The notes under the pieces are model-generated. The model ran no database searches, was not told where the DNA came from, and worked only from the letters and a program-made list of their open reading frames with translations. Below, piece after piece: positions 1-15,464 of a DNA stretch of 15,464 nt. Origin of the DNA: a virus (taxonomy: Duplodnaviria; Heunggongvirae; Uroviricota; Caudoviricetes). A program made the translations under genes and the position numbers. The stretch lies in IMG/VR virus record IMGVR_UViG_2671180268_000006; one strand, 5' to 3'. Position 1 is the first letter of the stretch. Every line of letters starts with the position of its first letter.

Positions 1-14
1 CTGTCCAATGTGCA

Positions 15-50
15 TAAAAAAATCCGGAAACAAGTGAGCGTTTCCGGATT
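15..50 (-). terminator. Candidate rho-independent terminator downstream of portal gene
   Basis: On the minus strand, hairpin TCCGGAAAC/GTTTCCGGA (plus 23-50) followed by a T-run (plus A-run 15-22), about 35 nt after the portal stop at 83-85. Not folded computationally. Confidence 0.4.
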
Positions 51-82
51 CTTACACAGCCACTGGATCGGTCAACTGATCC

Positions 83-1330
83 TTAACTGATCGGCATTAC
101 ACCACCGGGACGCGGATTCATATCTTCCAGGTCGCGGCAGTCATTGGAAGAGTAAATTCCCCAGTTGATCCCGGTGGCGTAGGCTTCAAAACGGGACTTC
201 ATATCCCCGCGCAGTAACGCCCCGGCGTTAAATTTGGCGTAATAAACGCCCTGCTTACTTTTTCGTACCAGTCCGGTGTTGATCCGCTGTTCGATGCGGG
301 TCAGATACGGCACCAGTGAATAGTTGATAAATCCCAGCCCCAGCTCTTCGATATTGTTGAAGGTGGCGCGATCGGTGTTCTGCACCATGTGCAACGGCAC
401 CCGGAACAGACGACAGATTTCTTCCAGCTGAAACTTGCGGGTTTCCAGGAACTGACTGTCCTCGGCGTTCAGCGCCATCGACTTCCAGTCCAGCCCCATT
501 TCCAGAATCATCGGGCGGTGAGCATTGCCAAGCCCCGTGTGACACTCCTCAAAATCTTTCTTCAGACGCTCGTAAGCATCCGGCGTGAGCTTTTGTTCCG
601 TACGCAACACACCGGATGTCACCGCACCATTACTAAACAACCTGGCACCGTGCTCCTCGGTTGCCGCTGCCAGTGAAATGGCCTCACGCGCATACGCAAT
701 GGGATTCAGCCCGACAAGTCCATCCAGCGTCAGGGTGCGCACATGCCAGATTTCATTCTGGGTCAACACATCCACGGAACCATCCGGAAACGTCACCTGA
801 TAAACCGGCTGCCACTGGCTGTTCAGCTTCGGTTCCACACAGCCCGGATCTATCGGAAGAAGCTCCACCACTTCTCCCAGTGCCTTTACCTTGTAGGCGT
901 AAAAATTCCCCCGTAGACACAGGCAGACAATAACCAGCTCCCAGAATTCCTGCGGTGTCATGTAGCCATTAGGTTTTGCCGAAACCAACTTATGCAGTCG
1001 TTCATCCACCGCCCGTGTTTTCAGGGTACCGCTGATTTTGTAGAGACTGCAGGGCAGCATACCAACAGACTCTGCCAGCACCCTGACGCAAGAATAGACC
1101 GCCGTCAGGCGCATGGCCCGCTGGCTACTGATCCGCTTTCCGGTATAGGTGTCGTATGACAGCCCGATAGCATCAGCAGTTCTGCTGGCGTGGTCACCGG
1201 CACATCGCTTTTTCGTTGAAATAATCCCGAAAAGAACACTATTTACCTCCGCCGACAGACTGCCGTGTACGGTCGAGATATCGCGCCACCAGCCACGACC
1301 AGAACAGGCACAGCGCCCCGGCAACAACAA
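83..1330 (-). CDS. Phage portal protein (HK97-like family)
   Basis: 415-aa ORF immediately downstream of the large terminase; [14 protein letters not shown]-type motif near the N-terminus and overall portal-like composition. Start is uncertain: the codon at 1330 is TTG, and no ATG/GTG/TTG lies between the end of the overlapping small ORF (1239) and the first internal ATG at 1114. Confidence 0.75.
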
Positions 1331-1421
1331 AACCCGCCGGGGGATAAATCAGCCAGGCACCATACGCCAGCAAAAGCGCACCCAGCACGCCCACCAGAGG
1401 CGCGAGAATCAGCATGATCAT
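1239..1421 (-). CDS. Small predicted membrane protein (two hydrophobic segments), function unknown
   Basis: 60-aa ORF with ATG start preceded by GAGG 5 nt upstream, placed 11 nt after the terminase stop. Product [49 protein letters not shown] is strongly hydrophobic. It overlaps the first 91 nt of the portal ORF in another frame. Confidence 0.45.
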
Positions 1422-1432
1422 AATTACCTCAG

Positions 1433-3166
1433 TTAAAGCGAGCGGATCCCGTAGGACTCAATGTGGTCAGACAGCGTGTCTTCTTTCTCGTACAGCATGG
1501 CTCTGCCAACCGCCATAATCAGCGCAACTGCACCATCGATTTTGTTTTCCGCCTGCTCTTTGACGGGTTTCACCACATCATCGTTACCCGGCATGTTTTT
1601 GCCGACCACGTTGCCGATACACCAGGTCATGATGGGATTGCCGTCATGATGAAAACGTCCCGATTCAATCGCTGCTTCCAGCTCTTTCATCGGATCGGAC
1701 ATATTGGTGAAGTTCTGGACGATAGTGACGGGATTCAGGTCTTCATCAGCAAGGTCATGTGACAACCCGGTCGCCCCGAAGGGGTCGATGGGTGACTCAC
1801 TGACCGGGCTGATTTTGTTCGCCGCTTTGGCCTCCTCGAGGATGTAGCGATAATCCACCTCCGCACCATCGGTAACGGTCAGAACGCCCATTTCCACCCA
1901 TTTCTGAAAGCGTTCGGCTGTCCGTCGATCTTCATTTTTCTCGACGCTGTACACCGTGTCATACGGTACCCAGAAACGCGGGGCCACACTGTAGTAATGC
2001 GTTTTACCGTCAATCTCGCGGGTATAAAGTCGCGCCATGCTGTTCATATCCAGCTTACGCGCCAGGTCAAAGGCCAGAATGCACGGCTGCCCCTCGAACT
2101 GCTCAAGGGTCAGTGATTTATCCTCGCAGCTCTGCCAGCTCACCAAGTTGAAATACGCCGAACGCGCCGACACCCAGATATTGAGGTGTTTTGTTTTAAA
2201 GACGTTTGCCAGACGGGCGTTATTTTTCGCACGCTGCTGCTGACTTAACAAAAATTCGCGATAAACCGACACGCCAATATTTGGATTGGCTTTTTCCAGC
2301 ACCTGCGGGCCGGTCCAGTCGTCACCTTCATCAACGGTATAGATGATCCCGAACAGTTCATCGTTAGGCACCGAGCCGTTGAGCATCTCGATGACTTCCC
2401 GCCGCTTGTCGTAGCACGGCCCCTCAATGTTGTACCCGGCGGTGGTGATGGCCCACATCAGTGGCTGACGTCGCGCCCCCATCCCGGTAAGCATTGTGGT
2501 ATAAAGCGCATCGGTGGCATGCTCGTGATATTCATCAACCACGGCACAGTGGGGTGATGAACCATCACCTGGGTTGCCGATCAGCGGTTCAAACCGCGCG
2601 CCATCCTCCGGACGGTTCATGTTTGAGGCGTTAACCTCAATCCCGAACGCTTCCGTCAGCATGGGTGTGCGTTTACACATCAGTCGCGCCGGGCGAAAGA
2701 CTTCCCACGCCTGTTTCTCTGTCGTGGCACCGGAATACACTTCCGCGCCAAACTCGTTATCACAGGCAAAACAATACAGGGCAACACCGGCAGAGATTGC
2801 TGATTTGCCGTTCTTACGGGGGATTTCGGTGTACACCTCCCGGAAGCGGCGCAACCGGGTGCCTTTATTGACCCAGCCAAACGCACAGCAGATCACAAAT
2901 AGCTGCCACGGCTCCAGCGTGATGGGCATCCGTTTGAATGCCCACTCCCCCTTGGTGTGCGGCAACAGCTGAATAAATTTCGCGGCCCGTTCAGCCAGGT
3001 CCTTGTCGAAGCGGTAACGAAACGACTTACTTTTTTCCGCCATCAGGTCATCAAGATGGCGCTGGCAGGCCTGAATCACAAACTGGCAGGCAACAATCTT
3101 TCCGCGCACGACATCCCGGGCATACTGATTTGCAGCATTTACGTTGGGGTAAGATTTCCGGCTCAT
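1433..3166 (-). CDS. Terminase large subunit
   Basis: 577-aa ORF with ATG start overlapping the small-subunit stop (ATGA). Size and position between small terminase and portal; family assignment is from recognition, not a search. Confidence 0.88.
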
Positions 3167-3657
3167 GATTCGATAATTTTCAGAAACGGGTTAGTGGCTT
3201 TCTTCTGCCCCGCCAGGCCAATCAGACGCTGGCGGCTGCTGGGGTCGAGTCCGAGCATTGCCCCCGTGCTGCTCATCTCGGACTCCTGTTCTTTTTTGGC
3301 GGTCAGCTCCGGATTTTTGACCCTGCCGCCCATTGCACCGGTGATGGTGTTGCCCTGTATGGCAATATTTTTCACGGCACGTCGCCAGAACTCATAGGCC
3401 ACGCACCACCGCTCAAGTACCGCCAGGTCAGTCACGCACAGCAGGCCCTGACCGCAGAGTTCTTTGGTTGTCAGTTGCCACATGATCGTGGCGAGAGGGA
3501 GATCTTCTTCAGCGAACCACTCTGGTGGCTCAACACCTTTGATGGGCGTAAAAACAGGTTCATCTTTGTTCAGGGCTCGCTTGCCGGGGTTTCCGGCCAG
3601 CGCCTTGCGCGCCGTTGGCTTGGGGCGACGCCCGGAACGCCCCGCCGTTCCAGCCAT
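3163..3657 (-). CDS. Terminase small subunit (P27-family-like)
   Basis: Track ORF 3163..3666 begins at GTG with no spacing from AGGAG; the ATG at 3657 sits 8 nt downstream of AGGAG, giving 164 aa. Basic N-terminus ([13 protein letters not shown]) and position directly upstream of terL. Confidence 0.8.
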
Positions 3658-3666
3658 ATGCGGCAC

Positions 3667-3778
3667 TCCTGGTTAAATTTCATTTTTCGCGGGTATAAAA
3701 AAACGATGGGGCGGGCAGTCCGGAAGACGTCAGGTCACAGGGATTTGCCCCGCCCCTCCCTACAAGTGAGAATAATTA
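3667..3778 (-). other. HNH-terS intergenic region with GC-rich inverted repeat; candidate cos site and/or terminator
   Basis: Plus 3708-3718 GGGGCGGGCAG and 3747-3756 GCCCCGCCCC form an imperfect inverted repeat, followed on the minus strand by a T-run (plus 3696-3703). In HK97-like phages cos lies between the HNH gene and terS. Inference only. Confidence 0.3.
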
Positions 3779-4129
3779 TCACCGGATTCGTTCGCGCGCT
3801 GTTTTCGCTTTATGGCAGGGCCAGCACAGACTCTGCAGGTTGCTGTCTGCGTCTGTTCCGCCATGCGCTTTCGGGATGATGTGGTCGACGGTTTTCGCCT
3901 CGCTCACCACACCGACACGCAGACACAACTGACACAGACCTTTATCGCGCTTCAGAATACGGGCACGAATCACCGTCCATTTTGAGCCATAGCCACGCTG
4001 GTGGCGGCTCAGTCCGCGCTGGTGCTGCACCCAGCCTTCACCGCGATGTTTATCGCAGTAACCCGAACTGTCTGTGGTTGTACCTGCACATCCACGCTTA
4101 CGGCAGGCACGTGGGATTAGTGATGGCAT
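3779..4129 (-). CDS. HNH endonuclease (terminase-associated)
   Basis: 116 aa, ATG with GAGG 6 nt upstream. Cys pairs (CRKRGC, CDKH) and DHIIPKAHGG...N...CWPCH motif typical of HNH nucleases; adjacent to terS as in HK97-like packaging modules. Confidence 0.85.
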   Translation of the reverse strand: MPSLIPRACRKRGCAGTTTDSSGYCDKHRGEGWVQHQRGLSRHQRGYGSKWTVIRARILKRDKGLCQLCLRVGVVSEAKTVDHIIPKAHGGTDADSNLQSLCWPCHKAKTARERIR

Positions 4130-4171
4130 AAATACCTCATACCCTGCGAAATGTTTACCACGATAAAAAGG

Positions 4172-4636
4172 CTACTTAATGCACTGAGTGCGGATATACT
4201 CCTGTGCCCCTTCCAGTTGCATCTGCATCGTCATCAGCCGCTCTCTGAGGGTGAAATAATCCCGTTCAGCGGTGTCTGCCAGTCGGGGGCTGGTTGCATT
4301 ATCCACGCCGGAGGCGGTGGTGGCTTCACGCACTGACTGACAGACTGCTTTGATGTGCAACCGACGACGACCAGCGGCAACATCAGCGCGCAGAGTTTCA
4401 TTTTCAGCTTTCGCATCAGCTAACTCCTTCGTGTATTTAGCATCGAGTGCATTAACATCACGCTGTCTCTGCTGCATGTCAGTAATGGTTGCGTTCGCCA
4501 GCTTCAGTTCTCTTGCGTTTTTGTCGCGCTGCTCTTTGTAGGTAATGGCGTTATCACGGTAATGATTAACAGCCCATGACAGGCAGACGATGATGCAGAT
4601 AACCAGAGCGGAGATAATCGCGGTGACTCTGCTCAT
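4172..4636 (-). CDS. Rz: Rz i-spanin
   Basis: Translation [34 protein letters not shown]... closely matches lambda Rz as I recall it; start ATG overlaps the R stop (ATGA). Track ORF starts 4 codons earlier at GTG. Confidence 0.9.
4234..4416 (-). CDS. Rz1: Rz1 o-spanin (lipoprotein) embedded in Rz in the +1 frame
   Basis: 60 aa, [38 protein letters not shown]...; lipobox LVVVGC and proline-rich stretch as in lambda Rz1; lies wholly inside Rz. Confidence 0.85.
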
Positions 4637-5130
4637 TGCTGCCCCCACAAACAGACTTCACGCTCAATCTCACGACGGGTCATCAGCCCTTTCCATTGCT
4701 TACCGCCAGCATATGTCCAGCGACATAGCTGGTCACATGCGCCTTTGATATAGCCCTGGTTTATTTTGCGAAGAAGCGTCGATGTTCTGAAATTGCCAGC
4801 GCCCACGTTGTAAACGAACGAGTAAAGAGCGCCGCGCGTTGTTTCCGGTATATCGACTTTGATGTACGGGTTAATTTGTCTGGCGACAGTGGCAAGGTCT
4901 TTATTCAGGAGGGCTTTGCATTCTGCTTCGGTATACGTTTTACCGAGCATGATGTCTTTTCCGGTGTGTCCGTGACATACAGTCCATACACCAATGATAT
5001 CTTTGTATGGTATGTAGCTGACACCTTCCAGACCATCGTTACCACCTGGGCCAGTGATTAACACAGATGCTATAGCAACAGCCCCACCACCAATAGCAGC
5101 TGCAACAGCCTTGCGTAATGATGGCGACAT
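4633..5130 (-). CDS. R: SAR endolysin (phage-21 R-like lysozyme)
   Basis: 165 aa; N-terminal Gly/Ala-rich weakly hydrophobic SAR-like segment ([20 protein letters not shown]) followed by a lysozyme-like domain. Start overlaps S stop (TAATG). Match to phage 21 R is from memory. Confidence 0.88.
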
Positions 5131-5345
5131 TATTCACCTCTCGCAGCCTTACGCTTGTCTTCTCTTATTTTGAAATACAGATTTGTCAGATAAGTCAGAA
5201 GCCCCAGAAGCAGACTTCCCAGCACACCAATCGCAGCCCACTGTGATGGACTGACCTGATCCAACCACTGCAAAAACCAGTAGCCGGCACTGCCGGCGGA
5301 GGTGCCGTAGGCAATGCCTGTTGATATTTTTTCCATCTGATACAT
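5130..5345 (-). CDS. S: Class II holin / pinholin (phage-21 S-like) with dual-start motif
   Basis: 71 aa, [53 protein letters not shown]...; two in-frame ATGs at codons 1 and 4 (5345 and 5336), matching the S21 antiholin/holin arrangement as I recall it. Confidence 0.88.
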
Positions 5346-5376
5346 ATCCCGCCCCCCGACAGACCTGTGCTATCGG

Positions 5377-5411
5377 AAAGAAAAAAGGCCATCAGCAAAA
5401 CTCTGATGGCC
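5377..5411 (-). terminator. Candidate rho-independent terminator upstream of S
   Basis: Minus-strand hairpin GGCCATCAG(8-nt loop)CTGATGGCC (plus 5387-5411) followed by TTTTTTCTTT (plus A-run 5378-5386). Q-modified polymerase would be expected to read through. Confidence 0.45.
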
Positions 5412-6025
5412 TGAATCACCTTTACCAATATTGTATGAAAAAACACGCACGACTAATTGACAATAATTTTCATTTCCATTAAAAAAGATCGCGTAGCATT
5501 CTTAATTCATGAGGAACTTTACCCGCCAGCAATCTGAGTAGCGAAAGCTGTTCATCCCCAATGTTTTTGCTGGCGGGTCCTTTTTTCTACGGTCCTCCTC
5601 CCCGGAGGGGGGCATTTCATTATTTTTCTAATCGTTACTGGTGAGAAGGCGGAAGAAAAAGCCAGTTCTTCGCCCCTAAATAACAGCATGATTCCAGTCC
5701 ATGCAAAATCTGATTTCCAGCTCACACATACCGAGCACTGTACAAAAAACCGCCAGCCAAGGCAGTTAAGAGTGTGTTCCCGGGGTTTGCTTAGAATATT
5801 TTGTAAGTTGTCCGAAGAGATATTTACAACACCAGAATGATGAATCATCAGTCCCCTGCCAGAGGTTCACTACGTAACCTGACCGACAATGCACCATTCT
5901 GGTGCTGAAAAAAGAGCACTGGAACTGCAACAAAACAACATCACAGAACAGGAGATGGTAAGGAGTCAGACATTCCCACACAATATTGTGTCAGTGCAAA
6001 TAACAACCTTCGTCTCAAATCTCGC

Positions 6026-6100
<75 letters not shown>

Positions 6101-6103
6101 ATA

Positions 6104-6179
<76 letters not shown>

Positions 6180-6181
6180 GC

Positions 6182-6258
6182 TGGCCCACCACCGAGGACT
6201 CGAACCTCGCACCGTCAACTTAGAAGGTTGATGCTCTATCCGGATGAGCTAGTGGTGG
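6182..6258 (-). tRNA. tRNA-Arg (anticodon UCU), atypical C1-G72 acceptor pair
   Basis: TAGCTCA D-arm, anticodon stem TCAAC/GTTGA, loop CTTCTAA, T-arm CGAGG-TTCGAGT-CCTCG, acceptor CCACCAC/GTGGTGG, discriminator G, CCA encoded. The 5' nucleotide is C, not the usual G. Confidence 0.78.
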
Positions 6259-6259
6259 T

Positions 6260-6336
6260 TGGTGGCCCTTGCTGGACTTGAACCAGCGACCTGGCGATTA
6301 TGAGTCGCTCGCTCTGACCAACTGAGCTAAAGGGCC
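6260..6336 (-). tRNA. tRNA with CAU anticodon, ileX-like (tRNA-Ile2 via lysidine, or elongator Met)
   Basis: GGCCCTTTAGCTCAGTTGGTCAGAGCGAGCGACTCATAATCGCCAGGTCGCTGGTTCAAGTCCAGCAAGGGCCACCA; acceptor GGCCCTT/AAGGGCC; anticodon loop CTCATAA. Similarity to E. coli ileX is from memory. Confidence 0.85.
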
Positions 6337-6525
6337 GGAGGCAGAATAATAACCATATGTCATCACATCTGCAAACTCATCTGACCACCAGCACGTTTAA
6401 CGTCCTGTGCCGTTTTTCAGGTATAAAAAAACCCGCTCATCGGCGGGTTTAAGCTGTGTGGCGTAGTAACCACTCTTAACAGGATATTCAACTTTTTACG
6501 ATCGTAAAGTTTTCGGAAAAAATTT

Positions 6526-7095
6526 TTAAAACCGCATCAACCGCTCCACCAGTTGCTCTTTACGGGCAACGATCCACCCGTGTTGCTCCAGATAAAATTT
6601 AAACCGTTCCAGAGTACATACCATCGCATCGGCGGGTACCTTTTCCGTGAACTCAACCTGACCGTGTTTATCGAAGTGGCTCAGTAATGCGCATCCATCA
6701 TTTTCGATAGATGTGTTTTGTGCCGCTGGTGGCTGTTTCTGGTTGAAATAACAGTCTTCCAGTTTTTCGAACACTTCCCACGCCTGATCGGTTTCGAGCA
6801 TTTTGGCGTGACGGGCTGCGCCACGTTCTGTCCAGAGGATGAGGGAGCGAACGTTACGGGCAATTTTCACAGAAACTCTTAAAGAGTTTTCGTTCTTCAA
6901 CTCTCGTAACGCATCACCTTCTATCAGGAAAAAATGTTTACCTTCTATAAACCGTTCTTTGTTTCGATTGAAATTGTTTGTCAAACGCTGGCGCTCTGTT
7001 CCGTACAAATCAGCCAGCAGCTCTGTTGTCATGACAGGAAGATGGTTATGCGTAAGTGACGGGAGTTTTTCAATAGACGTGCGATTCATAGACAT
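6526..7095 (-). CDS. ORF6N-like (Bro-N/antirepressor-like) domain phage protein, function unknown
   Basis: Track ORF 6526..7287, but the first ATG with an upstream AAAGGA is at 7095 (MSMNRTSIEKLPSLTHNHLPVMTTELLADLYGTERQRL...), about 189 aa. Domain name is from recognition of this N-terminal pattern, not a search. Confidence 0.65.
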   Translation of the reverse strand: MSMNRTSIEKLPSLTHNHLPVMTTELLADLYGTERQRLTNNFNRNKERFIEGKHFFLIEGDALRELKNENSLRVSVKIARNVRSLILWTERGAARHAKMLETDQAWEVFEKLEDCYFNQKQPPAAQNTSIENDGCALLSHFDKHGQVEFTEKVPADAMVCTLERFKFYLEQHGWIVARKEQLVERLMRF

Positions 7096-7448
7096 GTCCT
7101 TTCGAATATTTTGATTTACCCCTTTTGAGAGGGTGACCGGGCGCTCAAAACCGTCGAAAGTCGGCGGGCGTATTTCCATTGCTGGTATTGTATTAGCCGC
7201 ACACCCGGTCATAAACCAAGAATTCTGGACACAAAAAAACCACATGGCTATCGGGTGTGGATACCGCTTTCGAGGTGTTTTGAGCACCGCGGGGAAATGT
7301 AAACTGCAAACCTGAAACTGTCAACACCGTCAGGTTCCAATCATCGGGTGGTGAGACGCACAGGGTTGGAACTACCGGGAAACCGACCGGCGAGCTTTTC
7401 AGCTCCCCCATGCGCCCCACCATAATTCAGATGTGCGCGTGCATACGA

Positions 7449-7475
7449 CAATAAAAAACACGCTCGCGGCGTGTG
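7449..7475 (-). terminator. Candidate tR'-like terminator downstream of Q
   Basis: Minus strand CACGC-CGCGA-GCGTG hairpin (plus 7459-7473) followed by TTTTTTATT (plus A-run 7451-7458), about 60-70 nt downstream of the candidate pR'. Confidence 0.45.
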
Positions 7476-7535
7476 TCTGTCGCGGTCTCTATCCGGGGTT
7501 CCAATCCCGACGCCAGATTTTGCTGGCGCGTGAGG

Positions 7536-7565
7536 AATATAGCCCCGGACAATGTGTCTGGTCAA
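7536..7565 (-). promoter_or_regulatory. Candidate late promoter pR' (TTGACC-18 nt-TATATT)
   Basis: On the minus strand just after the Q stop (7570): -35 TTGACC (plus 7560-7565), 18-nt spacer, -10 TATATT (plus 7536-7541). Position matches the lambdoid Q/pR'/tR' arrangement. Confidence 0.4.
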
Positions 7566-7569
7566 GCAC

Positions 7570-7956
7570 CTACATAATTCGTTCTACGTATCTGTCCATC
7601 TCCAGCCGGATATCAAGCATCATCAACATGCCATCAATAACCCCTTCCGCTTTCTGCAGGCGCTTGCCAATACAGGTATCCGAACACCCATGTTTCCGTG
7701 CCAGACTCATAAAAGTCATTCCACCTACGTAATAATCCACCAGCAAATCGTGCAAATCCTGATTTTTCTTGTTCAACCGGGCCATACAGCCACAAATTAT
7801 CATTGCATCATCATCAGAACACTGAGGGCGTGATTTCACTTTCGACGGAATTAACCCTTTAAAACCAGCAGCGATCGACGCCCAGGATACATCTTCATGA
7901 GTGTTTGCAGCCCAAGCCCCCCACCGTTCCATAACCTGCTGAATATCACGCGCCAT
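7570..7956 (-). CDS. Q: Antitermination protein Q (82/21-type)
   Basis: [64 protein letters not shown]... is typical of the non-lambda Q family. Start chosen at ATG 7956 (AGGTGA 6 nt upstream); track ORF begins 7 codons earlier at 7977. Confidence 0.85.
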
Positions 7957-8317
7957 CGTTATCACCTGTGATTTCATAAATCTTCACGCCCAGTCGCCCA
8001 CCAGGAACGAGCTGACCGCGCACAATATTGATTTCATCAAACTGCTCGTCGTCTATGAGTAGTCCGGCATGCGTCAGCGCATCCAGTGGTGCTTTCAGGA
8101 TATTGTCCAGGTCACGACGGCGCTTATCCGGTGGCTCTGCAATAATCTTTATCGCCAGCCTTCCGGACAGGTTTAATTTCAGCCGCTGCTGGCGAACAAT
8201 TAGCGTCACATCACGGCGATAACGCTCACCAACTTTTGATACAAAATATGTGCTGCCACGACGTCGCCAGTAAGTATTCACCGTCGGCGGATAAGGTAAA
8301 ATAAACTCATGGCGCAT
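7946..8317 (-). CDS. rusA: RusA Holliday-junction resolvase
   Basis: 123 aa; [14 protein letters not shown]-terminus and [29 protein letters not shown] acidic catalytic region characteristic of RusA. Start overlaps the stop of the upstream 85-aa ORF. Confidence 0.9.
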
Positions 8318-8693
8318 CAGCGCAGCACCTCCTGCACCATTTTTTCAAACTTTCCAACTTTGGTTTCCAGCTCTGCCACACAATCAACGAGCTCATCCAC
8401 CGCTTTTTGTGCGCGATGTTTCGCCTGCATCAGTTCCCTGAGCGCTGGCACCATATCCCGACGAATGGCATCTTTTGTTACACCTGTTTTTTCCAGTTGT
8501 TCCGCCTGTCGCAACATTTCCTGCGCGTGTTTACGCAATTGTTCAGAGGTAAAAGTCATTGTCTGGTTGTTCAAAAGAAACGCTCCATCTTACTGCTGTC
8601 GGTACGTGTATTGCTGTATCTGCGCGGCTGGGGCTGCCGCATTGGGGTGGAAAGAACCTGTGCGCTTTCCTGGTCCACAGGCAGAAAATGTCC
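8211..8693 (-). repeat. Inverted repeat copy A (helicase 3' end, 85-aa gene, rusA 5' end)
   Basis: Reverse complement is highly similar to 12018..12500. Judged from aligned translations (helicase C-terminus ...SSKMERFF, about 6 substitutions in the 85-aa protein, first 35 RusA residues nearly identical). Exact identity not computed. Confidence 0.8.
8317..8574 (-). CDS. Conserved small phage protein with coiled-coil character, function unknown
   Basis: 85-aa ORF (MNNQTMTFTSEQLRKHAQEMLRQAEQLEKTG...). Track start at 8574 is TTG overlapping the helicase stop; the first ATG is at 8559. A near-identical copy lies at 12137..12394 on the plus strand. Confidence 0.6.
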   Translation of the reverse strand: MNNQTMTFTSEQLRKHAQEMLRQAEQLEKTGVTKDAIRRDMVPALRELMQAKHRAQKAVDELVDCVAELETKVGKFEKMVQEVLR

Positions 8694-9962
8694 GTTATAA
8701 AAACGCCGGTAAATCGTCCCCAGAGAACCGTTACGTTGTTTCGTGATATTAATTTCTGCTATGCCTGTAGCCTGTGTATCCGGGTTGTACACTTCATCCC
8801 TGTAAAGCATCAGAATGATGTCTGCATCCGCCTCTATTTCTCCGGAATTTTTCAGGTCTGAGTTCATGGGACGTTTATTGGGTCTGGACTCCACACCGCG
8901 GGAGAGCTGGCTCAGCGCAATCAACGGAAAACCACCGGATTTTGCCAGGCCTTTAAGCCCCTTTGAGATTTCACCCACGGCAAGGTCATGACGCCCCGTG
9001 GTTCGGGTTTTTATCAGCCCGAGATAATCAACCACCACCAGCGCCGTTTCCGGATGTTTAATCAGATGGTGTTTCGTTGTTGCGCATATCTCATCAATGG
9101 TCAGGTTCGCCTGGTCCACCATCCAGATATTGCGCCCGGTCATCCGCCCCACCCCTTGTGAGAAACGCGCCCAGTCTTCATCTTCAAAGTGAGCCACAGA
9201 TTTCAGGCGTGATACTGGCATCCCTCCAGCCGCAGACACCATACGTTCACCAATCTGGATGTTCGCCATCTCCATGGTGAACAGAAGCACACCATGCCCC
9301 TGCTCAGTCACCTTGTCGATGATGTCCAGCGCAAGTTCGGTTTTCCCCATCGAAGGACGGGCGGCAATGAATACCAGGTCTCCGGGCTCCATACCGCCTG
9401 TTTTTGCGTCCAGTTCATCAATACCGGTCATCAACGTCCTGGATTTCTCCAGCCCCTGATTCCGGCATTCAACACGCTCAACCACTTCCGGAAGCACATC
9501 ATCAATATGTACCGGCTGAATGACGCCCTTTCCTGTCGACAGTGTGACCATCATGTTCTGCGCATCCTTCAGGGCATCTTCAGCTGCTTCACAGGTATGC
9601 GCATCACGTAATTTCTGCAGCGCCTCATTCAGTGTTTTTTCTGCATCGCGCAGTGCGGCATTGCGCCGCAACGCTGCAACATAGTGCTCCAGTGAAGACT
9701 TCACCCAGGTTTTACGCCCGGTATCAGTAATCACCGGGGCAAGTTCCGGCATCTCATTACACAACAGCACGGGGTCAATCACTCCTGAAACACGGGCCTG
9801 TCTGCAGATGCCTGTGTAGATATCCCGATACGCTCGTACAGAAAAAATGTCCGCCGGTAGTGTGATCAGAATATCCATCACTTCATGATCTGCCCCACGC
9901 AGAAAGAATGCGCCAATGACAGCGCCTTCCAGGTCATCATTACGCCAGACTGGTGTTGTCAT
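8571..9962 (-). CDS. Replicative DNA helicase (DnaB-like)
   Basis: Start set at ATG 9962 (GAGGTG 8 nt upstream), 463 aa. Walker A region DLVFIAARPSMGKTELAL and later LSQLSRGVESRPNKRPMNSDL, EADADIILMLYRDEVY match DnaB-family motifs. The track ORF extends into IS2 and those 47 codons are not part of the gene. Confidence 0.85.
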   Translation of the reverse strand: MTTPVWRNDDLEGAVIGAFFLRGADHEVMDILITLPADIFSVRAYRDIYTGICRQARVSGVIDPVLLCNEMPELAPVITDTGRKTWVKSSLEHYVAALRRNAALRDAEKTLNEALQKLRDAHTCEAAEDALKDAQNMMVTLSTGKGVIQPVHIDDVLPEVVERVECRNQGLEKSRTLMTGIDELDAKTGGMEPGDLVFIAARPSMGKTELALDIIDKVTEQGHGVLLFTMEMANIQIGERMVSAAGGMPVSRLKSVAHFEDEDWARFSQGVGRMTGRNIWMVDQANLTIDEICATTKHHLIKHPETALVVVDYLGLIKTRTTGRHDLAVGEISKGLKGLAKSGGFPLIALSQLSRGVESRPNKRPMNSDLKNSGEIEADADIILMLYRDEVYNPDTQATGIAEINITKQRNGSLGTIYRRFYNGHFLPVDQESAQVLSTPMRQPQPRRYSNTRTDSSKMERFF

Positions 9963-10077
9963 GCAGCCACACCTCTGATACAAGAACGGTAGCTGGGCCA
10001 GTTGAACGACAACCAGTTGCGCCCCCCGTCTGTGATCCTGTCGGCAATGCGGGGGCTGATGAACGCTGGATTTGCCC

Positions 10078-10983
10078 CTATATTTCCAGACACCTGTTAT
10101 CACTTAACCCATTACTGGCTTGCTGCCGTAGATATTCCCGTGGCGAGCGATAACCCAGTGCACTATGCGGATGCCATTCGTTATAATGCTCGAACGCCTC
10201 TGCAAGGTTCTTTGCTGCCGTTAACCCGTCTGGTTTGGGCATGACACTGATGTAGTCACGCTTTATCGTTTTCACGAAGCTCTCTGCTATGCCGTTACTC
10301 TCCGGACTCCGCACCGCCGTGCTCTTCGGTTCAAGCCCCAACATCCGGGCAAACTGCCGTGTTTCATTAGCCCGGTAGCATGAACCATTATCCGTCAGCC
10401 ACTCTACTGGAGACGCCGGAAGCTCGTTGCCGAAGCGGCGTTCCACCGCTCCCAGCATGACGTCCTGTACTGTTTCACTGTTGAAGCCGCCCGTAGTGAC
10501 CGCCCAGTGCAGTGCCTCACGGTCACAGCAGTCCAGCGCGAACGTGACTCGCAGTTTTTCTCCGTTATCACAGCGGAACTCGAACCCGTCAGAGCACCAT
10601 CGCTGATTACTTTCTTTCACAGCCACTCTGCCTGTATGTGCCCGTTTCGATGGCGGTACAGCAGGTTTTCGCTCAAGCAACAGCGCATTCTGGCGCATGA
10701 TCCGGTAAACACGTTTGGCATTGATCGCAGGCATACCATCAAGTTCTGCCTGTCTGCGAAGCAGCGCCCATACCCGACGATAACCATACGTGGGCAGCTC
10801 TCCGATAACATGGTGTATACGGAGAAGCACATCCGTATCATCAGTGTGACGACTGTGGCGGCCATCCATCCAGTCATCGGTTCGTCTGAGAATGACGTGC
10901 AACTGCGCACGCGACACCCGGAGACAACGGCTGACTAAGCTTACTCCCCATCCCCGGGCAATAAGGGCGCGTGCGCTATCCAC
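10078..10983 (-). CDS. insD: IS2 transposase OrfB (InsD), normally made as InsCD fusion by -1 frameshift
   Basis: 301-aa ORF with rve/DDE-type integrase core (…WCSDGFEF…, …LTDNGSCY…, …ESNGIAESF…); overlaps orfA over 10941-10983 where the A6G slippery site sits. Confidence 0.85.
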
Positions 10984-11306
10984 TTTTTTGCCCGTCCATA
11001 TTCAACGGCTTCTTTGAGGAGTTCATTTTCCATCGTTTTCTTGCCGAGCAGGCGCTGGAGTTCTTTAATCTGCTTCATGGCGGCAGCAAGTTCAGAGGCA
11101 GGAACAACCTGTTCTCCGGCGGCGACAGCAGTAAGACTTCCTTCCTGGTATTGCTTACGCCAGAGAAATAACTGGCTGGCTGCTACACCATGTTGCCGGG
11201 CAACGAGGGAGACCGTCATCCCCGGTTCAAAGCTCTGCTGAACAATTGCGATCTTTTCCTGTGTGGTACGCCGTCTGCGTTTCTCCGGCCCTAAGACATC
11301 AATCAT
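10941..11306 (-). CDS. insC: IS2 OrfA (InsC)
   Basis: 121 aa from [41 protein letters not shown]... (helix-turn-helix region); track ORF starts 15 codons earlier at a non-ATG codon. Confidence 0.85.
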
Positions 11307-11397
11307 CTGTACTCCAATGACTAGTCTAAAAACTAGTATTAAGACTATCACTTATTTAAGTGATACTGGTTGTCTGGAGATTCAGGGGGCCAGTCTA

Positions 11398-11417
11398 NNN
11401 NNNNNNNNNNNNNNNNN
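11398..11417. other. Assembly gap (20 N)
   Basis: Run of 20 ambiguous bases starting immediately after the IS2 left end; the classic signature of a scaffold join at a repeat. Confidence 0.95.
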
Positions 11418-11514
11418 GAAGGGAAAGGGCCTTCCCGAGAGTGGTAAAGGAGAGGCCCTGGAAATACCCCACTCCCCCTCTGCCAACCCAATACAGATTT
11501 TAAAGATTATATAG

Positions 11515-11802
<288 letters not shown>

Positions 11803-11860
11803 CGAAAGTATTTAGCGGGCATGAAAATGGCAAATAACGGTCAAACATCGTGGCGTTGAC

Positions 11861-12016
11861 ACAATTGCGATCTTTTCCTGTGTGGTACGCCGTCTGCGTT
11901 TCTCCGGCCCTAAGACATCAATCATCTGTACTCCAATGACTAGTCTAAAAACTAGTATTAAGACTATCACTTATTTAAGTGATACTGGTTGTCTGGAGAT
12001 TCAGGGGGCCAGTCTA
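11861..12016 (-). mobile_element. IS2 left-end fragment (156 bp, same orientation as the complete copy)
   Basis: 11861-12016 is identical or near-identical by eye to 11242-11397 (IS2 left inverted repeat plus first ~21 codons of orfA), ending in the same ...GGGGGCCAGTCTA terminus. Confidence 0.8.
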
Positions 12017-12017
12017 C

Positions 12018-12140
12018 GGACATTTTCTGCCTGTGGACCAGGAAAGTGCACGGGTGCTTTCCACTCCCATGAAGCCCGGCAATCCGCGCAGATACAGTAA
12101 TAAACGAACTGACAGCAGTAAGATGGAGCGTTTCTTTTGA
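12018..12140 (+). pseudogene. 3' remnant of DnaB-like helicase gene (last ~40 codons), truncated by IS2 fragment
   Basis: In-frame translation GHFLPVDQESARVLSTPMKPGNPRRYSNKRTDSSKMERFF* parallels the C-terminus of the intact helicase at 8571..9962; the upstream part is replaced by IS2 sequence at 12016. Confidence 0.7.
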
Positions 12141-12394
12141 ACAACCAGACAATGACTTTTACCCCTGAACAATTGCGTAAACACGCGCAGGAAATGCTGC
12201 GTCATGCTGAACAACTCGAAAAAACGGGCATAACAAAAGACGCTATCCGTAAAGATATGGTACCCGCGCTTCGGGAACTGATGCAGGCGAAGCATCGCGC
12301 ACAGAAAGCAGTAGATGAGCTGGTGGACTGTGTGGCAGAGCTGGAAACCAGAGTCGGAAAGTTTGAAAAACTGGTGCAGGAGGTGCTGCGCTGA
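12137..12394 (+). CDS. Conserved small phage protein (second copy of the 85-aa coiled-coil protein)
   Basis: 85-aa ORF differing from the 8317..8574 product at about six positions; GGAG 8 nt upstream of the TTG at 12137, first ATG at 12152. Confidence 0.6.
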   Translation: MNNQTMTFTPEQLRKHAQEMLRHAEQLEKTGITKDAIRKDMVPALRELMQAKHRAQKAVDELVDCVAELETRVGKFEKLVQEVLR

Positions 12395-12500
12395 TGCGCC
12401 ATGAGTTTATTTTACCTTATCCGCCGACGGTGAATACTTACTGGCGACGTCGTGACAACACATATTTTGTATCAAAAGCCGGTGAGCGTTATCGCCGGGA
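12394..12500 (+). pseudogene. rusA 5' fragment (about 35 codons) joined to a Q gene
   Basis: [35 protein letters not shown] parallels the RusA N-terminus at 8317-8211, then diverges at an ambiguous base (n at 12501); the catalytic region is absent. Confidence 0.7.
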
Positions 12501-12513
12501 NGCAGGTCAAAAA

Positions 12514-13368
12514 ATGAAACTGGAAGATTTACCGAAATACTACTCCCCAAAATCCCCTTGCCTGACCGATGCATCGGCCTCAACGTCAAAAGATGCGCTG
12601 AGTATCACTGATGTGATGGCCGCGCAGGGCATGACACAGAATCGGGCTGAGATGGGGTTTTCTGCGTTCCTGGGGAAAATGGGCATCAGTATGAATGACA
12701 GGGCGCGGGCAACAGAATTACTGGCAGATTATGCACTCAGTCGGTGCGATCGTGTGGCGGCGTTGAGAAAACTTCCGGCAGAAATAAAACCGGTAGTGAT
12801 GCGCATTATGGCTTCGTACGCTTTTGAGGATTATGCCCGCAGCGCAGCGAGTAAAAAGCAGTGCCCTTGTTGCTATGGGGAAAAATTTATTGAAAGCGTA
12901 GTTTTTACAAACAAGGTCCAGTATCCGGATGGTAAGCCGCCGGTATGGGCAAAGTGTACGAAAGGTGTGTATCCGTCTTACTGGGAAGAATGGAAAAAAG
13001 TCAGGGAGGTGGTAAAAGTTGCCTGTCCGGAGTGTGGCGGAAAGGGTGAGGTTTCCACCGCCTGTAAGGATTGCCGTGGGCGTGGTGTCGCCATTCATCG
13101 TGAAGAGTCGGTAAAACGTGGTATGCCTGTTATCAGAGACTGCCAGCGTTGTGGTGGTCGTGGCTATGAAAGACTACCATCAACGGAGGCATTTAATGCT
13201 ATATGCGAGGTGACAAACCAGATAACACGCGCGTCATGGGAAAAAACAGTTAAGAAATTCTATGATGCGCTGGTGACTCGGTTTGATATTGAAGAAGCAT
13301 GGGCTGAGCGGCAGTTAAAAAAGGTAACTAGGTTGATTTTTCCGGAATCTGTGGTAAATTCGTCATAA
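12514..13368 (+). CDS. Q: Antitermination protein Q, lambda-type, with expanded Cys-rich (CxxCxGxG) region
   Basis: From ATG 12514: MKLEDLPKYYSPKSPCLTDASASTSKDALSITDVMAAQGM... parallels lambda Q (HSPKSP...DVMAAMGM, recalled from memory). Three CxxCxGxG-like motifs (CPECGGKG, CKDCRGRG, CQRCGGRG). 284 aa, longer than lambda Q; no strong SD upstream, so start is tentative. Confidence 0.72.
   Translation: MKLEDLPKYYSPKSPCLTDASASTSKDALSITDVMAAQGMTQNRAEMGFSAFLGKMGISMNDRARATELLADYALSRCDRVAALRKLPAEIKPVVMRIMASYAFEDYARSAASKKQCPCCYGEKFIESVVFTNKVQYPDGKPPVWAKCTKGVYPSYWEEWKKVREVVKVACPECGGKGEVSTACKDCRGRGVAIHREESVKRGMPVIRDCQRCGGRGYERLPSTEAFNAICEVTNQITRASWEKTVKKFYDALVTRFDIEEAWAERQLKKVTRLIFPESVVNSS
13333..13360 (+). 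promoter_or_regulatory. Candidate pR'-like promoter overlapping the Q 3' end (TTGATT-16 nt-TAAATT)
   Basis: -35 TTGATT at 13333-13338, 16-nt spacer, -10 TAAATT at 13355-13360, just before the Q stop (13366-13368). Pattern only. Confidence 0.3.
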
Positions 13369-13407
13369 CTATGGGCGTTTTATGCCTGACGTTAGAAGAG
13401 TTTCTAC

Positions 13408-13434
13408 AACCCGCCGCCGAGCGGGTTTTTTATT
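13408..13434 (+). terminator. Rho-independent terminator downstream of Q (tR'-like)
   Basis: AACCCGC-CGCCGA-GCGGGTT hairpin followed by TTTTTTATT, about 40 nt after the Q stop. Confidence 0.55.
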
Positions 13435-13470
13435 GCGGAATTAATTACGGACCGTTATTATTCTGCTCCC

Positions 13471-13546
13471 GGCCCTTTAGCTCAGTGGTGAGAGCGAGCG
13501 ACTCATAATCGCCAGGTCGCTGGTTCAAATCCAGCAAGGGCCACCA
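13471..13546 (+). tRNA. tRNA with CAU anticodon, ileX/ileZ-like (tRNA-Ile2 or Met)
   Basis: GGCCCTTTAGCTCAGTGGTGAGAGCGAGCGACTCATAATCGCCAGGTCGCTGGTTCAAATCCAGCAAGGGCCACCA; acceptor GGCCCTT/AAGGGCC, anticodon loop CTCATAA, CCA encoded. Differs at a few positions from the 6260..6336 copy. Confidence 0.85.
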
Positions 13547-13646
13547 TCACAAACCGCCATTAGCTTATCAGGAAGAGCAGACGACACGATAACAGGGTTG
13601 TTGGTGCGGGGGCGGGTCCCCGATGGCGGTCCATTATCGGTATTCA

Positions 13647-13723
13647 GCGTTGTTAGCTCAGCCGGACAGAGCAATTGCCTTCTAAGCAATCGGTCACTGG
13701 TTCGAATCCAGTACAGCGCGCCA
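13647..13723 (+). tRNA. tRNA-Arg (anticodon UCU)
   Basis: GCGTTGTTAGCTCAGCCGGACAGAGCAATTGCCTTCTAAGCAATCGGTCACTGGTTCGAATCCAGTACAGCGCGCCA; acceptor GCGTTGT/ACAGCGC (one G-U), anticodon loop CTTCTAA, T-loop GGTTCGAATCC. Confidence 0.85.
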
Positions 13724-13860
13724 TATTCATTCTTCCAGATTCCTTCCGGCAGAGCCTTATACTGAAATATACCTGGCTCAGGATATTGTTGAAAATATTT
13801 TATGTTTGTCAAAAATAAAAGTTCTGTTAAGTATTGATTGAGTGTTTGTTATACGGTCTA

Positions 13861-14187
13861 ATGGTTTTTTCAGCATTAAATATTTATCATTCATATGGTG
13901 TGGGTAGAGTGAATATTGATGAGGCGTCGGGGTGTTTCATCCTTAGGCAGCGTATTGATATAGTCAATGCAGCACGAGCAAAGGCCTTCAGCCGTTTGAC
14001 AGTTTTGTTCTGTACTCCTGATCGTCTTTCGGGAAGAGACGTTATTATTCTGAATAGTGATGCTATACAGAGGGTTTGCGATGAGTTCATGGTTGCTAAT
14101 TCAGAATTATTTGCTCTTGTTCAGGAGTACAACAGAATAGCCAGGACCTGTGGTATGGATGAACTTCGGATTACTCATCTGGGGTAG
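13861..14187 (+). CDS. Hypothetical protein in AT-rich cargo island, function unknown
   Basis: Track ORF 13834..14187 starts at TTG; first ATG at 13861 gives 108 aa (MVFSALNIYHSYGVGRVNIDEASGCFILRQRIDIVNAARAKAFSRL...). No recognisable motif and weak SD; coding status uncertain. Confidence 0.4.
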   Translation: MVFSALNIYHSYGVGRVNIDEASGCFILRQRIDIVNAARAKAFSRLTVLFCTPDRLSGRDVIILNSDAIQRVCDEFMVANSELFALVQEYNRIARTCGMDELRITHLG

Positions 14188-14222
14188 ATACATATCTGGA
14201 TTATCACCTGTTACGGTAAAAA

Positions 14223-14354
14223 GTGATTGCTTACTGTTTTTGTGAATGGCATTGCAGCAGCCGGATAATGTCAGTGCTGGCTGACGGTGTGCTGGTGGCG
14301 GGTGTGGTGGTTGTTGCTTTCCCGTTGCTGAAAAAGAAAACGCCAGACTGTTAG
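14223..14354 (+). CDS. Candidate small hydrophobic peptide (28 aa from ATG 14268, 43 aa from GTG 14223)
   Basis: ATG at 14268: MSVLADGVLVAGVVVVAFPLLKKKTPDC*, a single hydrophobic stretch with a polybasic tail. Weak SD (GCCGGA). Highly speculative. Confidence 0.2.
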   Translation: MIAYCFCEWHCSSRIMSVLADGVLVAGVVVVAFPLLKKKTPDC

Positions 14355-14578
14355 CCGGGTATCAGTTAGCGGGAGAAATTTTTAAATACTTCACAATTCA
14401 GGCGGTTGACTGTTGTCTGGTTTGCGGGGAGTTTGTTAAAAGAAACTGGCATGGTGAATCCCCCTGTGCGGAGGGGCAATCAGCGAGTAGGTATATGGGA
14501 TAATCGCGGATTCAGGTGCTGGTACTGAATTCACCGGGAGGCACCCGGCACCATGCAATGGCACATAGCGCCACTCTC

Positions 14579-14614
14579 CAGCCCCTCTCCGGAGGGGCTG
14601 TTTATATTGATTTT
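14579..14614 (+). terminator. Rho-independent terminator in cargo island
   Basis: CAGCCCCT-CTCCGG-AGGGGCTG hairpin followed by TTTATATTGATTTT on the plus strand; on the minus strand the same hairpin has no T-run after it. Confidence 0.5.
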
Positions 14615-14634
14615 GTCAGATGTGAGTAAACTCC

Positions 14635-14970
14635 TTATGGACTTTGTTGTTTTAGTCCATAAGGACATATTTGCAGAGTGCAACGGTTATTAAAGCATTC
14701 ATTCAATACGTTATCTGTATTTGTAGGGCATTCCTGGCTATTTTTGATTGAATTCCAGAATGTTTTATTGAATGGTACTACGTTGTAAATGGTTACAGGT
14801 AGCACTTTGTTATTGAGCATGATGCCTGTGTGAGTCAGTGTAAATATACTTTCAGGAGGTAAGAAAGCATCCGATTGATACCAGATTATTAATTTTATTT
14901 TACTCCATATGACTGAAAAAGATATTCCGCATGATGGCTGGATAACTGTATCAATCACAATCCACTTCAT
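14635..14970 (-). CDS. Hypothetical low-GC protein (111 aa), function unknown
   Basis: ATG start with AAGGAAAC 5-6 nt upstream; markedly AT-rich with several Cys residues near the C-terminus; no obvious signal peptide. Convergent with the 108-aa ORF. Confidence 0.55.
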
Positions 14971-15230
14971 TTAGTTTCCTTGTTTATGCCTTGCTGGTGA
15001 TGTTCTGAAAAGTATAAATGATATTTTTGAATGTAAACCATAGAGCAGAATTATTTTTCTGATGTTGTTTATTGTTTATTTAAATGCAGGGTGGTTTATA
15101 TCTCGTCTTGTAGTTTATCCATGCATATCTGCTTGATAATCAGGTTTTTATTTAAGGTATGGTTTTGTGTTTTTTCTGTATTACATGTCAGGTATTTTAA
15201 AGAATTATTTTTCAGATGGTGGAAAGAACC

Positions 15231-15404
15231 ATGGCATTTAAACACTATGATGTTGTCAGGGCGGCGCCGCCGTCAGATCTTGCGGAAAAGCTGACACATA
15301 AACTGAAAGAGGGCTGGCAGCCGTTTGGTAGTCCGGTGGCCATAACCCCTTATACCCTGAGGTGTACTGGCAATAGCGGACACTACCATTTGTTCTTTTT
15401 TTAA
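15231..15404 (+). CDS. Small phage protein, function unknown
   Basis: Track ORF 15216..15404; second ATG at 15231 has GGAAAG upstream, giving MAFKHYDVVRAAPPSDLAEKLTHKLKEGWQPFGSPVAITPYTLRCTGNSGHYHLFFF (57 aa). I could not confirm a family name. Confidence 0.45.
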   Translation: MAFKHYDVVRAAPPSDLAEKLTHKLKEGWQPFGSPVAITPYTLRCTGNSGHYHLFFF

Positions 15405-15464
15405 GCAGCCATCTGATGATATTTTTCCCTGAAGGCTGCCGGGGAGATATTCCCCAGACGAGAG

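Follow-up and report, generated by a model that had tools for sequence, protein, structure and literature searches.

A resident IS2 isoform as the probable left boundary of a P27-like prophage remnant in Shigella sonnei

The window analyzed here is a stretch of 15,464 nucleotides, recorded as a virus of the class Caudoviricetes (IMG/VR record IMGVR_UViG_2671180268_000006). It is DNA of Shigella sonnei, and its positions 1-11397 align end to end with S. sonnei assemblies at 99.9% identity. An IS2 isoform of the IS3 family, located at 10067-11397 on the minus strand, is very probably a resident element that delimits, on the left, a phage P27-like prophage remnant of ~10 kb. IS2 cuts the gene for a helicase loader directly upstream of a helicase gene, and the block of genes that follows, encoding the helicase, an 85-aa protein, RusA and the antiterminator Q, is, judging from its sequence, best seen as prophage debris that is silenced or transcribed weakly at most.

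The IS2 element measures 1331 bp, with the right terminal repeat (IRR) at 10067-10107 and the left one (IRL) at 11356-11397. Compared to IS2A of Escherichia coli K-12 it shows 28 differences in 1331 bp, corresponding to 97.9% identity; isoforms are delimited in ISfinder by a threshold of ~95% nucleotide identity, and the copy lies above it. On its own strand the element runs from TAGACTGGCC... to ...GGGGCAAATCCA, the same termini as in K-12 IS2A, whereas the plus strand reads TGGATTTGCCCC... from position 10067 and ...GGGGGCCAGTCTA up to position 11397. The match to IS2A is perfect over the first 30 and the last 21 bases, and each terminal repeat carries a single change (positions 32 and 1305). 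For IS2, terminal inverted repeats of 42 bp (IRL) and 41 bp (IRR) have been described (PMC3299598). Both the length and the terminal repeats of the window copy are those of the IS2 group of the IS3 family, in agreement with a preliminary description of this DNA that had reported a complete IS2 at these coordinates.

That description had also called both transposase genes intact, which they are. The gene insC (orfA) at 10941-11306 on the minus strand encodes a protein of 121 aa, made up of the HTH regulator and the N-terminal transposase part, which is the same as K-12 InsC1 and matches Pfam HTH_Tnp_1 with E = 1.8e-19. The intact ORF insD (orfB) at 10078-10983, likewise on the minus strand, encodes 301 aa including the DDE (rve) catalytic part and matches Pfam HTH_21, rve and rve_3; its product is the same as that of the S. 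sonnei 53G copy and ~9 aa off K-12 InsD1. The two genes overlap in the 0 and -1 frames at an A6G heptamer (AAAAAAG), the programmed -1 frameshift site that joins orfA to orfB, as described for IS2 in PMC3299598. The heptamer is intact, as had been stated, but the end given for it, 10990, was one base too long: it occupies 10983-10989 on the minus strand, that is IS positions 409-415, in the same context as in K-12 IS2A.

Length, termini, InsC, the orfA/orfB overlap and the heptamer at 409-415 are all shared with K-12 IS2A, and the copy possesses every defining feature of IS2 that is open to a sequence check. IS2 copies that differ by only 1 base in 1331 (99.9% identity) are found within several different genes of complete E. 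coli genomes, and a fimbrial usher gene of S. sonnei holds an IS2 with identical InsD and a perfect 5-bp duplication, GAACG/GAACG. The element at 10067-11397 is plausibly mobile and looks able to transpose. Its intactness in the source strain is taken from nine closed or near-closed S. sonnei genomes and not from the window by itself, where the left 274 bp of IS2 carry the alleles of another copy and a gap takes the place of the left flank.

The spacing between the end of IS2 and the helicase ATG (9960-9962) amounts to 104 bases. IS2 had correctly been placed upstream of the ATG at 9962; the distance of 105 bp given before is the difference of the two coordinates. The intervening bases had been taken for the leader of the helicase gene, which they are not, because loader residues 258-292 are encoded there. 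Translation of 9959-10066 on the minus strand yields AFISPRIADRITDGGRNWLSFNWPSYRSCIRGVAA*, i.e., 35 codons and a stop, and 34 of the 35 residues are identical to residues 258-292 of a DnaC/IstB-like helicase loader of 292 aa from an uninterrupted E. coli prophage. This 3' remnant is cut by IS2 after codon 257. The loader matches Pfam IstB_IS21 and Bac_DnaA, and its best NCBIfam match is 'replicative helicase loader DnaC', at a score under the cutoff of that family.

A comparison with uninterrupted homologous prophages had been suggested as a check, and it identifies the 292-aa loader gene as the native upstream gene. Prophages with a match to the segment 8571-10066 are present in 352 complete E. 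coli genomes, in 347 of which the match spans at least 80% of the helicase-segment query with up to 96.9% identity; the E. coli matches listed carry the annotations 'replicative DNA helicase', 'ATP-binding protein' and 'hypothetical protein'. In the best intact prophage, the loader CDS (6389-7267, 292 aa, 'ATP-binding protein') lies upstream of the helicase CDS (5001-6392) and overlaps it by 4 bp, the stop and start codons sharing the sequence ATGA. Homology between this prophage and the window reaches exactly position 10066 and then carries on within the loader CDS. Judged from these alignments, IS2 sits inside the loader gene, the first 257 codons of which, including the AAA+ core, are gone from the locus. 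The view that IS2 parts the helicase-RusA-Q block from its native upstream genes is thereby upheld, the gene that was cut being the loader gene.

The DnaB-family replicative helicase is encoded at 8571-9962 on the minus strand. It is intact with 463 aa and matches Pfam DnaB_C with E = 7.8e-73, while NCBIfam DnaB families match under their cutoffs; the Shine-Dalgarno sequence GAGGTG is kept 7 nt 5' of the ATG. Downstream on the same strand, the ORF list gives the 85-aa ORF (8317-8574), RusA (7946-8317) and the antiterminator Q (7570-7956). The genes identical to the latter two in closed genomes match Pfam RusA and Pfam Phage_antitermQ, and NCBIfam RusA is matched under its cutoff. A longer ORF of 510 aa at 8571-10103, starting at a GTG within IS2, was considered as an IS2-helicase fusion and rejected: the start at 9962 agrees with all homologues, and the open frame upstream of it is the loader region read out of frame.

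The same 463-aa helicase protein is found in many S. sonnei assemblies including that of strain 53G (HE616528), and the exact protein is retained in thousands of them. This retention fits recent clonal descent, and selection is also possible. In the chromosome-scale S. sonnei assembly L026 (JBEAAB010000011.1, 4022-6680) the helicase gene is further split by an IS3-family element, which argues against strong selection to keep the helicase.

The IRR junction, at which GCAAATCCA meets GCGTTCATCAGC, is real, since nine S. sonnei assemblies of chromosome scale, closed or near-closed, carry it in identical form, whereas an assembly artefact had previously been considered at this site. In all nine, the flanks are arranged as ...TTTAGTTGC, IS2, GCGTTCATC..., so that ...TGCTTTAGTTGC on the left side is followed by IS2 and then by GCGTTCATCAGC.... 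The left flank in closed genomes consists of the 5' third of a chromosomal autotransporter gene (adhesin-like), ypjA/ehaD, which is truncated there. This ypjA' is a 459-aa ORF that runs into IS2, with DNA 99.5% identical to E. coli ypjA and with Pfam AIDA repeats. The order at the S. sonnei 53G locus (HE616528) is ypjA', IS2, helicase, RusA, Q, lysis genes, terminase, and a portal gene interrupted by IS4. The window agrees with the closed genomes in the IRR junction and in the 99.9% identity over 1-11397, but differs from them by six alleles within IS2 1-274 and by an N gap and foreign DNA in place of ypjA'. The exact IRR junction was absent from the species-representative genomes scanned, the likely reason being that S. 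sonnei is not a separate species in that collection; among complete E. coli genomes, none has the junction and none covers more than 37% of the window.

A 5-bp target duplication, which had been thought to lie concealed in the N gap, was not found in the nine closed or near-closed genomes, where the bases next to IS2 are GTTGC on the ypjA' side and GCGTT on the loader side and the flanks are not contiguous. Duplications were readily seen in the positive controls, namely ATTAC/ATTAC around K-12 IS2A, which differs in this respect from the copy at the window locus, and the pair named above around the usher-gene IS2 of S. sonnei. A third IS2 copy, near ymgD, is likewise without one. Two unrelated flanks lacking a duplication point to an IS-mediated adjacent deletion or to IS2 x IS2 recombination and not to a simple insertion, and IS2 thus appears to mark a deletion or rearrangement boundary of the prophage remnant. 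From the window alone, one could picture a simple and recent insertion of IS2 into a non-coding leader, with both the duplication and the native upstream gene lying within the N gap, as the element is complete and the gap begins at its end. We consider this extremely improbable, since the 104 bp are loader coding sequence, the DNA beyond the gap comes from ~1.6 Mb away, and ypjA' at the IRL together with the mismatch of GTTGC and GCGTT refutes such an insertion for the closed genomes.

In the deletion or rearrangement reading that we favor, the first step would have been insertion of IS2 into the loader gene. The remainder of that gene, along with the integrase, immunity region and replication initiator, would have been lost or moved elsewhere in a later step mediated by IS2, for which an adjacent deletion and homologous recombination between this copy and a further IS2 are the two candidates. 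The predicted reciprocal junction would read CCAGTCTA + AACGC + CCACAACTCTTCCGG. The 5' part of the loader gene was sought in S. sonnei by a loader search and a cluster listing, from which 40 of 504 members were sampled. Among these sampled homologues none was named S. sonnei, a weak pointer to deletion; the full-length loaders in the sample were named E. coli, S. flexneri and S. dysenteriae, and further members were partial sequences at contig ends. That IS elements drive the decay and rearrangement of prophages in Shigella is well documented (PMC8072062).

The phage nearest to the remnant is the Stx2e phage phiP27, with 87.6% identity over 54% of the query. Over the helicase, the window is 96.9% identical to the intact E. 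coli prophage. From IS2 on, the order of the remnant is loader from codon 258, helicase, 85-aa ORF, RusA, Q, four tRNAs, holin, lysozyme, Rz, HNH, TerS, TerL and portal, and this order from the helicase to the portal gene is that of P27-like prophages, in which the replication module comprises an initiator, a DnaC-like loader and a DnaB-like helicase. Unlike these prophages, the window locus has nothing of the phage upstream of loader codon 258, and its portal gene is split by IS4. The window opens inside this IS4 (1-99), whose terminus ...GATCGGCATTA ends at window base 99, so that an IS flanks the remnant at either end, IS2 at one and IS4 at the other; more IS elements lie past the split portal gene. 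The portal/IS4 region was noted at window positions 1-99 and 83-1330. The tRNAs at 6026-6336, downstream of Q, are Gly-tcc, Thr-tgt, Arg-tct and a tRNA with a CAT anticodon, the last of which is annotated as tRNA-Ile in the intact E. coli relative. The locus lacks an integrase, an immunity region, a replication initiator and a full loader, and it does not have the make-up of an inducible lambdoid prophage. By its gene content the remnant is dead and would be unable to replicate, integrate or assemble.

What IS2 could mean for transcription of the helicase block depends on the sequence next to its IRR. In the intact phage, the helicase would be read from the early operon and would be translationally coupled to the loader via ATGA. 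After the event proposed above, the helicase-85aa-RusA-Q block would be cut off from the phage early promoter, the helicase would lose its coupling to the loader through the ATGA overlap, and the block would also lose the loader protein that a DnaB-type helicase needs. Only IS2 lies upstream of the block, in the same orientation. The IRR of IS2 carries an outward -35, and fusion promoters can form if a properly spaced -10 is present in the flank (PMC9330008). Such IS2-supplied -35 hexamers have been described for ampC, acrEF and neoR as well as for the minicircle junction promoter (PMC9330008, PMC3299598), the IS2-ampC case going back to Jaurin and Normark 1983 as cited in PMC9330008. The strong IS2 junction promoter is confined to the minicircle and requires a 17-bp spacer, and OrfA represses PIRL, the promoter of IS2 itself, which is weak and of the extended -10 type (PMC3299598).

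It had been suggested that a hybrid promoter at the junction could re-promote the block. IS2 would then act as a mobile promoter for helicase-RusA-Q, combining the IRR -35 with a -10 in the flank as in IS2-ampC, and indeed IS2 -35 hexamers are documented in fusion promoters (PMC9330008, PMC3299598) and the IRR is turned toward the helicase gene just as it is toward ampC. The -10 hexamer needed at 16-18 bp, however, is absent from the window flank. As the -35 we took the hexamer TGGAAA (10083-10088), assigning it to the junction-promoter type because 16 nt separate its end from the IRR tip. The flank hexamers at 16, 17 and 18 bp from it are GCGTTC, CGTTCA and GTTCAT, which match 0/6, 1/6 and 3/6 consensus positions, and none of them has the A at position 2. 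Of all hexamer pairs from the IRR to the ATG, the highest-scoring one reaches 8/12 with a spacer of 15 bp, and a consensus promoter scan returned none on the minus strand. We therefore regard a promoter of this kind as highly unlikely. Between the insD stop (10078) and the helicase ATG no terminator was predicted; a terminator-like site at 9925-9910 was discounted for its position within the helicase coding sequence and because the count of such sites is at chance level. Read-through from the weak, OrfA-repressed IS2 promoter would be the sole transcript source evident in the sequence, and read-through at a low level is possible.

The DNA beyond the gap has a different origin. In closed S. sonnei genomes, a second locus matches positions 11514-12500 and 12502-15464 with 100% identity; it lies ~1.6 Mb from the helicase locus in two of these genomes (CP045526.1 and CBDDMI010000001.1). 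This second locus is another P27-like remnant, in inverted orientation, and an inverted repeat of 485 bp with 89.5% identity links 8211-8695 to 12016-12500. The post-gap DNA was for this reason rejected as the original upstream region of the helicase block. Within it, 11514-11860 on the plus strand is the 3' part of an IS21-family element with the istB C-terminus in ORF 11518-11802; closed genomes hold complete istA and istB at the second locus, and the E. coli annotation is IS21 IstB. The IS21-family element is inserted in a second IS2 copy, the left end of which follows at 11861-12016 on the minus strand (156 bp, 100% identical to 11242-11397 in a self-BLAST). This second copy is interrupted after position 156, and its positions 157-202 are missing. 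Directly abutting it, 12018-12140 holds the last 40 codons of the helicase gene of the second prophage. Both P27-like remnants are cut by IS2 in the replication module, the first at the 3' end of the loader gene and the second at a point 40 codons short of the helicase stop. Also within the second remnant are tRNAs downstream of its Q at 13471-13723 (one with a CAT anticodon and Arg-tct) and a 111-aa ORF at 14635-14970 on the minus strand, the identical copy of which in closed genomes has Pfam PmrD.

The two IS2 copies also bear on how the window was put together. At IS positions 42, 43, 87, 88, 109 and 274 the IS2 of the window differs from the locus copy in every closed genome and matches another IS2 copy. 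All six informative sites (6/6) in 1-274 are of the second copy's type, all 25 (25/25) in 542-1331 are of the locus type, and the two copies do not differ over 275-541 (267 bp), the longest such stretch. As written, the left 274 bp of IS2, or more, may belong elsewhere. Positions 42-43 (window 11355-11356) are the center of a palindrome, TCACTTA-NN-TAAGTGA, which has AA in the window and in K-12 and TT in the locus copy of closed S. sonnei genomes. The binding sequence of the OrfA repressor falls within IS2 positions 39-48 (PMC3299598), and an effect of AA versus TT on IS2 autoregulation is possible.

Such a mosaic could be read as a real scaffold adjacency, in which a crossover of the helicase-side IS2 with the inverted, IS21-interrupted IS2 inverted ~1.6 Mb. 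In that case, the actual order would be helicase, IS2(1331..203), IS21, IS2(156..1) and the second prophage, and the left end of the 'complete' IS2 by the gap would be assembler fill. The clean two-part allele pattern speaks for a crossover, as do the mutual inversion of the two IS2 copies in two closed genomes, with order and orientation across the gap as predicted, and the frequency of IS-mediated rearrangements in Shigella reported in PMC8072062. Yet the arrangement is found in none of the sampled closed genomes, and the window contains IS positions 157-202, which are missing from the second copy. For these two reasons an artefact of the assembler or gap filler is more likely than a real IS2 x IS2 crossover. 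The switch moreover falls in 275-541, a place at which a graph assembler or gap filler would be expected to change copies, and the assembly is error-prone elsewhere, with a chimeric contig end and an N standing for 252 bp at 12501. Taken together, we consider the inversion rather unlikely. We hold it for unlikely, too, that such a ~1.6-Mb IS2 x IS2 inversion puts the two P27-like remnants head to head and that, separately or additionally, IS2 read-through could express a loader-less DnaB-type helicase, RusA and Q with a physiological effect.

Several features mark this assembly as unreliable near the gap, the mosaic IS2 among them. The 20-N gap at 11398-11417 starts directly after the last base of IS2, where the closed genomes run on into ypjA'. 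It is followed by an unreliable contig end at 11418-11513, consisting of 55 bp from the interior of IS4 and then a stretch of 63 bp. The latter (11462-11524) is identical to an E. coli plasmid region annotated as a TnsA-domain protein and is followed by the IS21 istB. The pieces at 11418-11524 are unrelated and overlap each other by ~11 bp, and this chain is missing from the closed genomes, in which istB is continuous; it has the look of debris from a gap filler or an assembly graph. At 12501 the window shows one N where the closed genomes have 252 bp, comprising the 3' part of rusA and the 5' end of Q. Because this N hides 252 bp, the 324-aa 'RusA-Q fusion' ORF at 12394-13368 is an assembly artefact. 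The right end of the window, 15355-15464, enters another repeated IS element with 99-100% matches at several sites in the S. sonnei loci.

IS2 is a well-characterized element, the locus is present in public S. sonnei genomes, and nothing here is new in kind; the significance beyond annotation hygiene is small. For annotation, the helicase 'leader' should be replaced by a loader pseudogene fragment, and the DNA to the right of the gap should not be taken as the neighbor of IS2 without read-level evidence. The window displays a number of pitfalls of draft assemblies, i.e., a gap at an IS terminus, a mosaic of two IS copies, chimeric contig ends and an N that hides 252 bp. For the biology of S. 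sonnei, it provides a case in which IS elements delimit and inactivate prophages.
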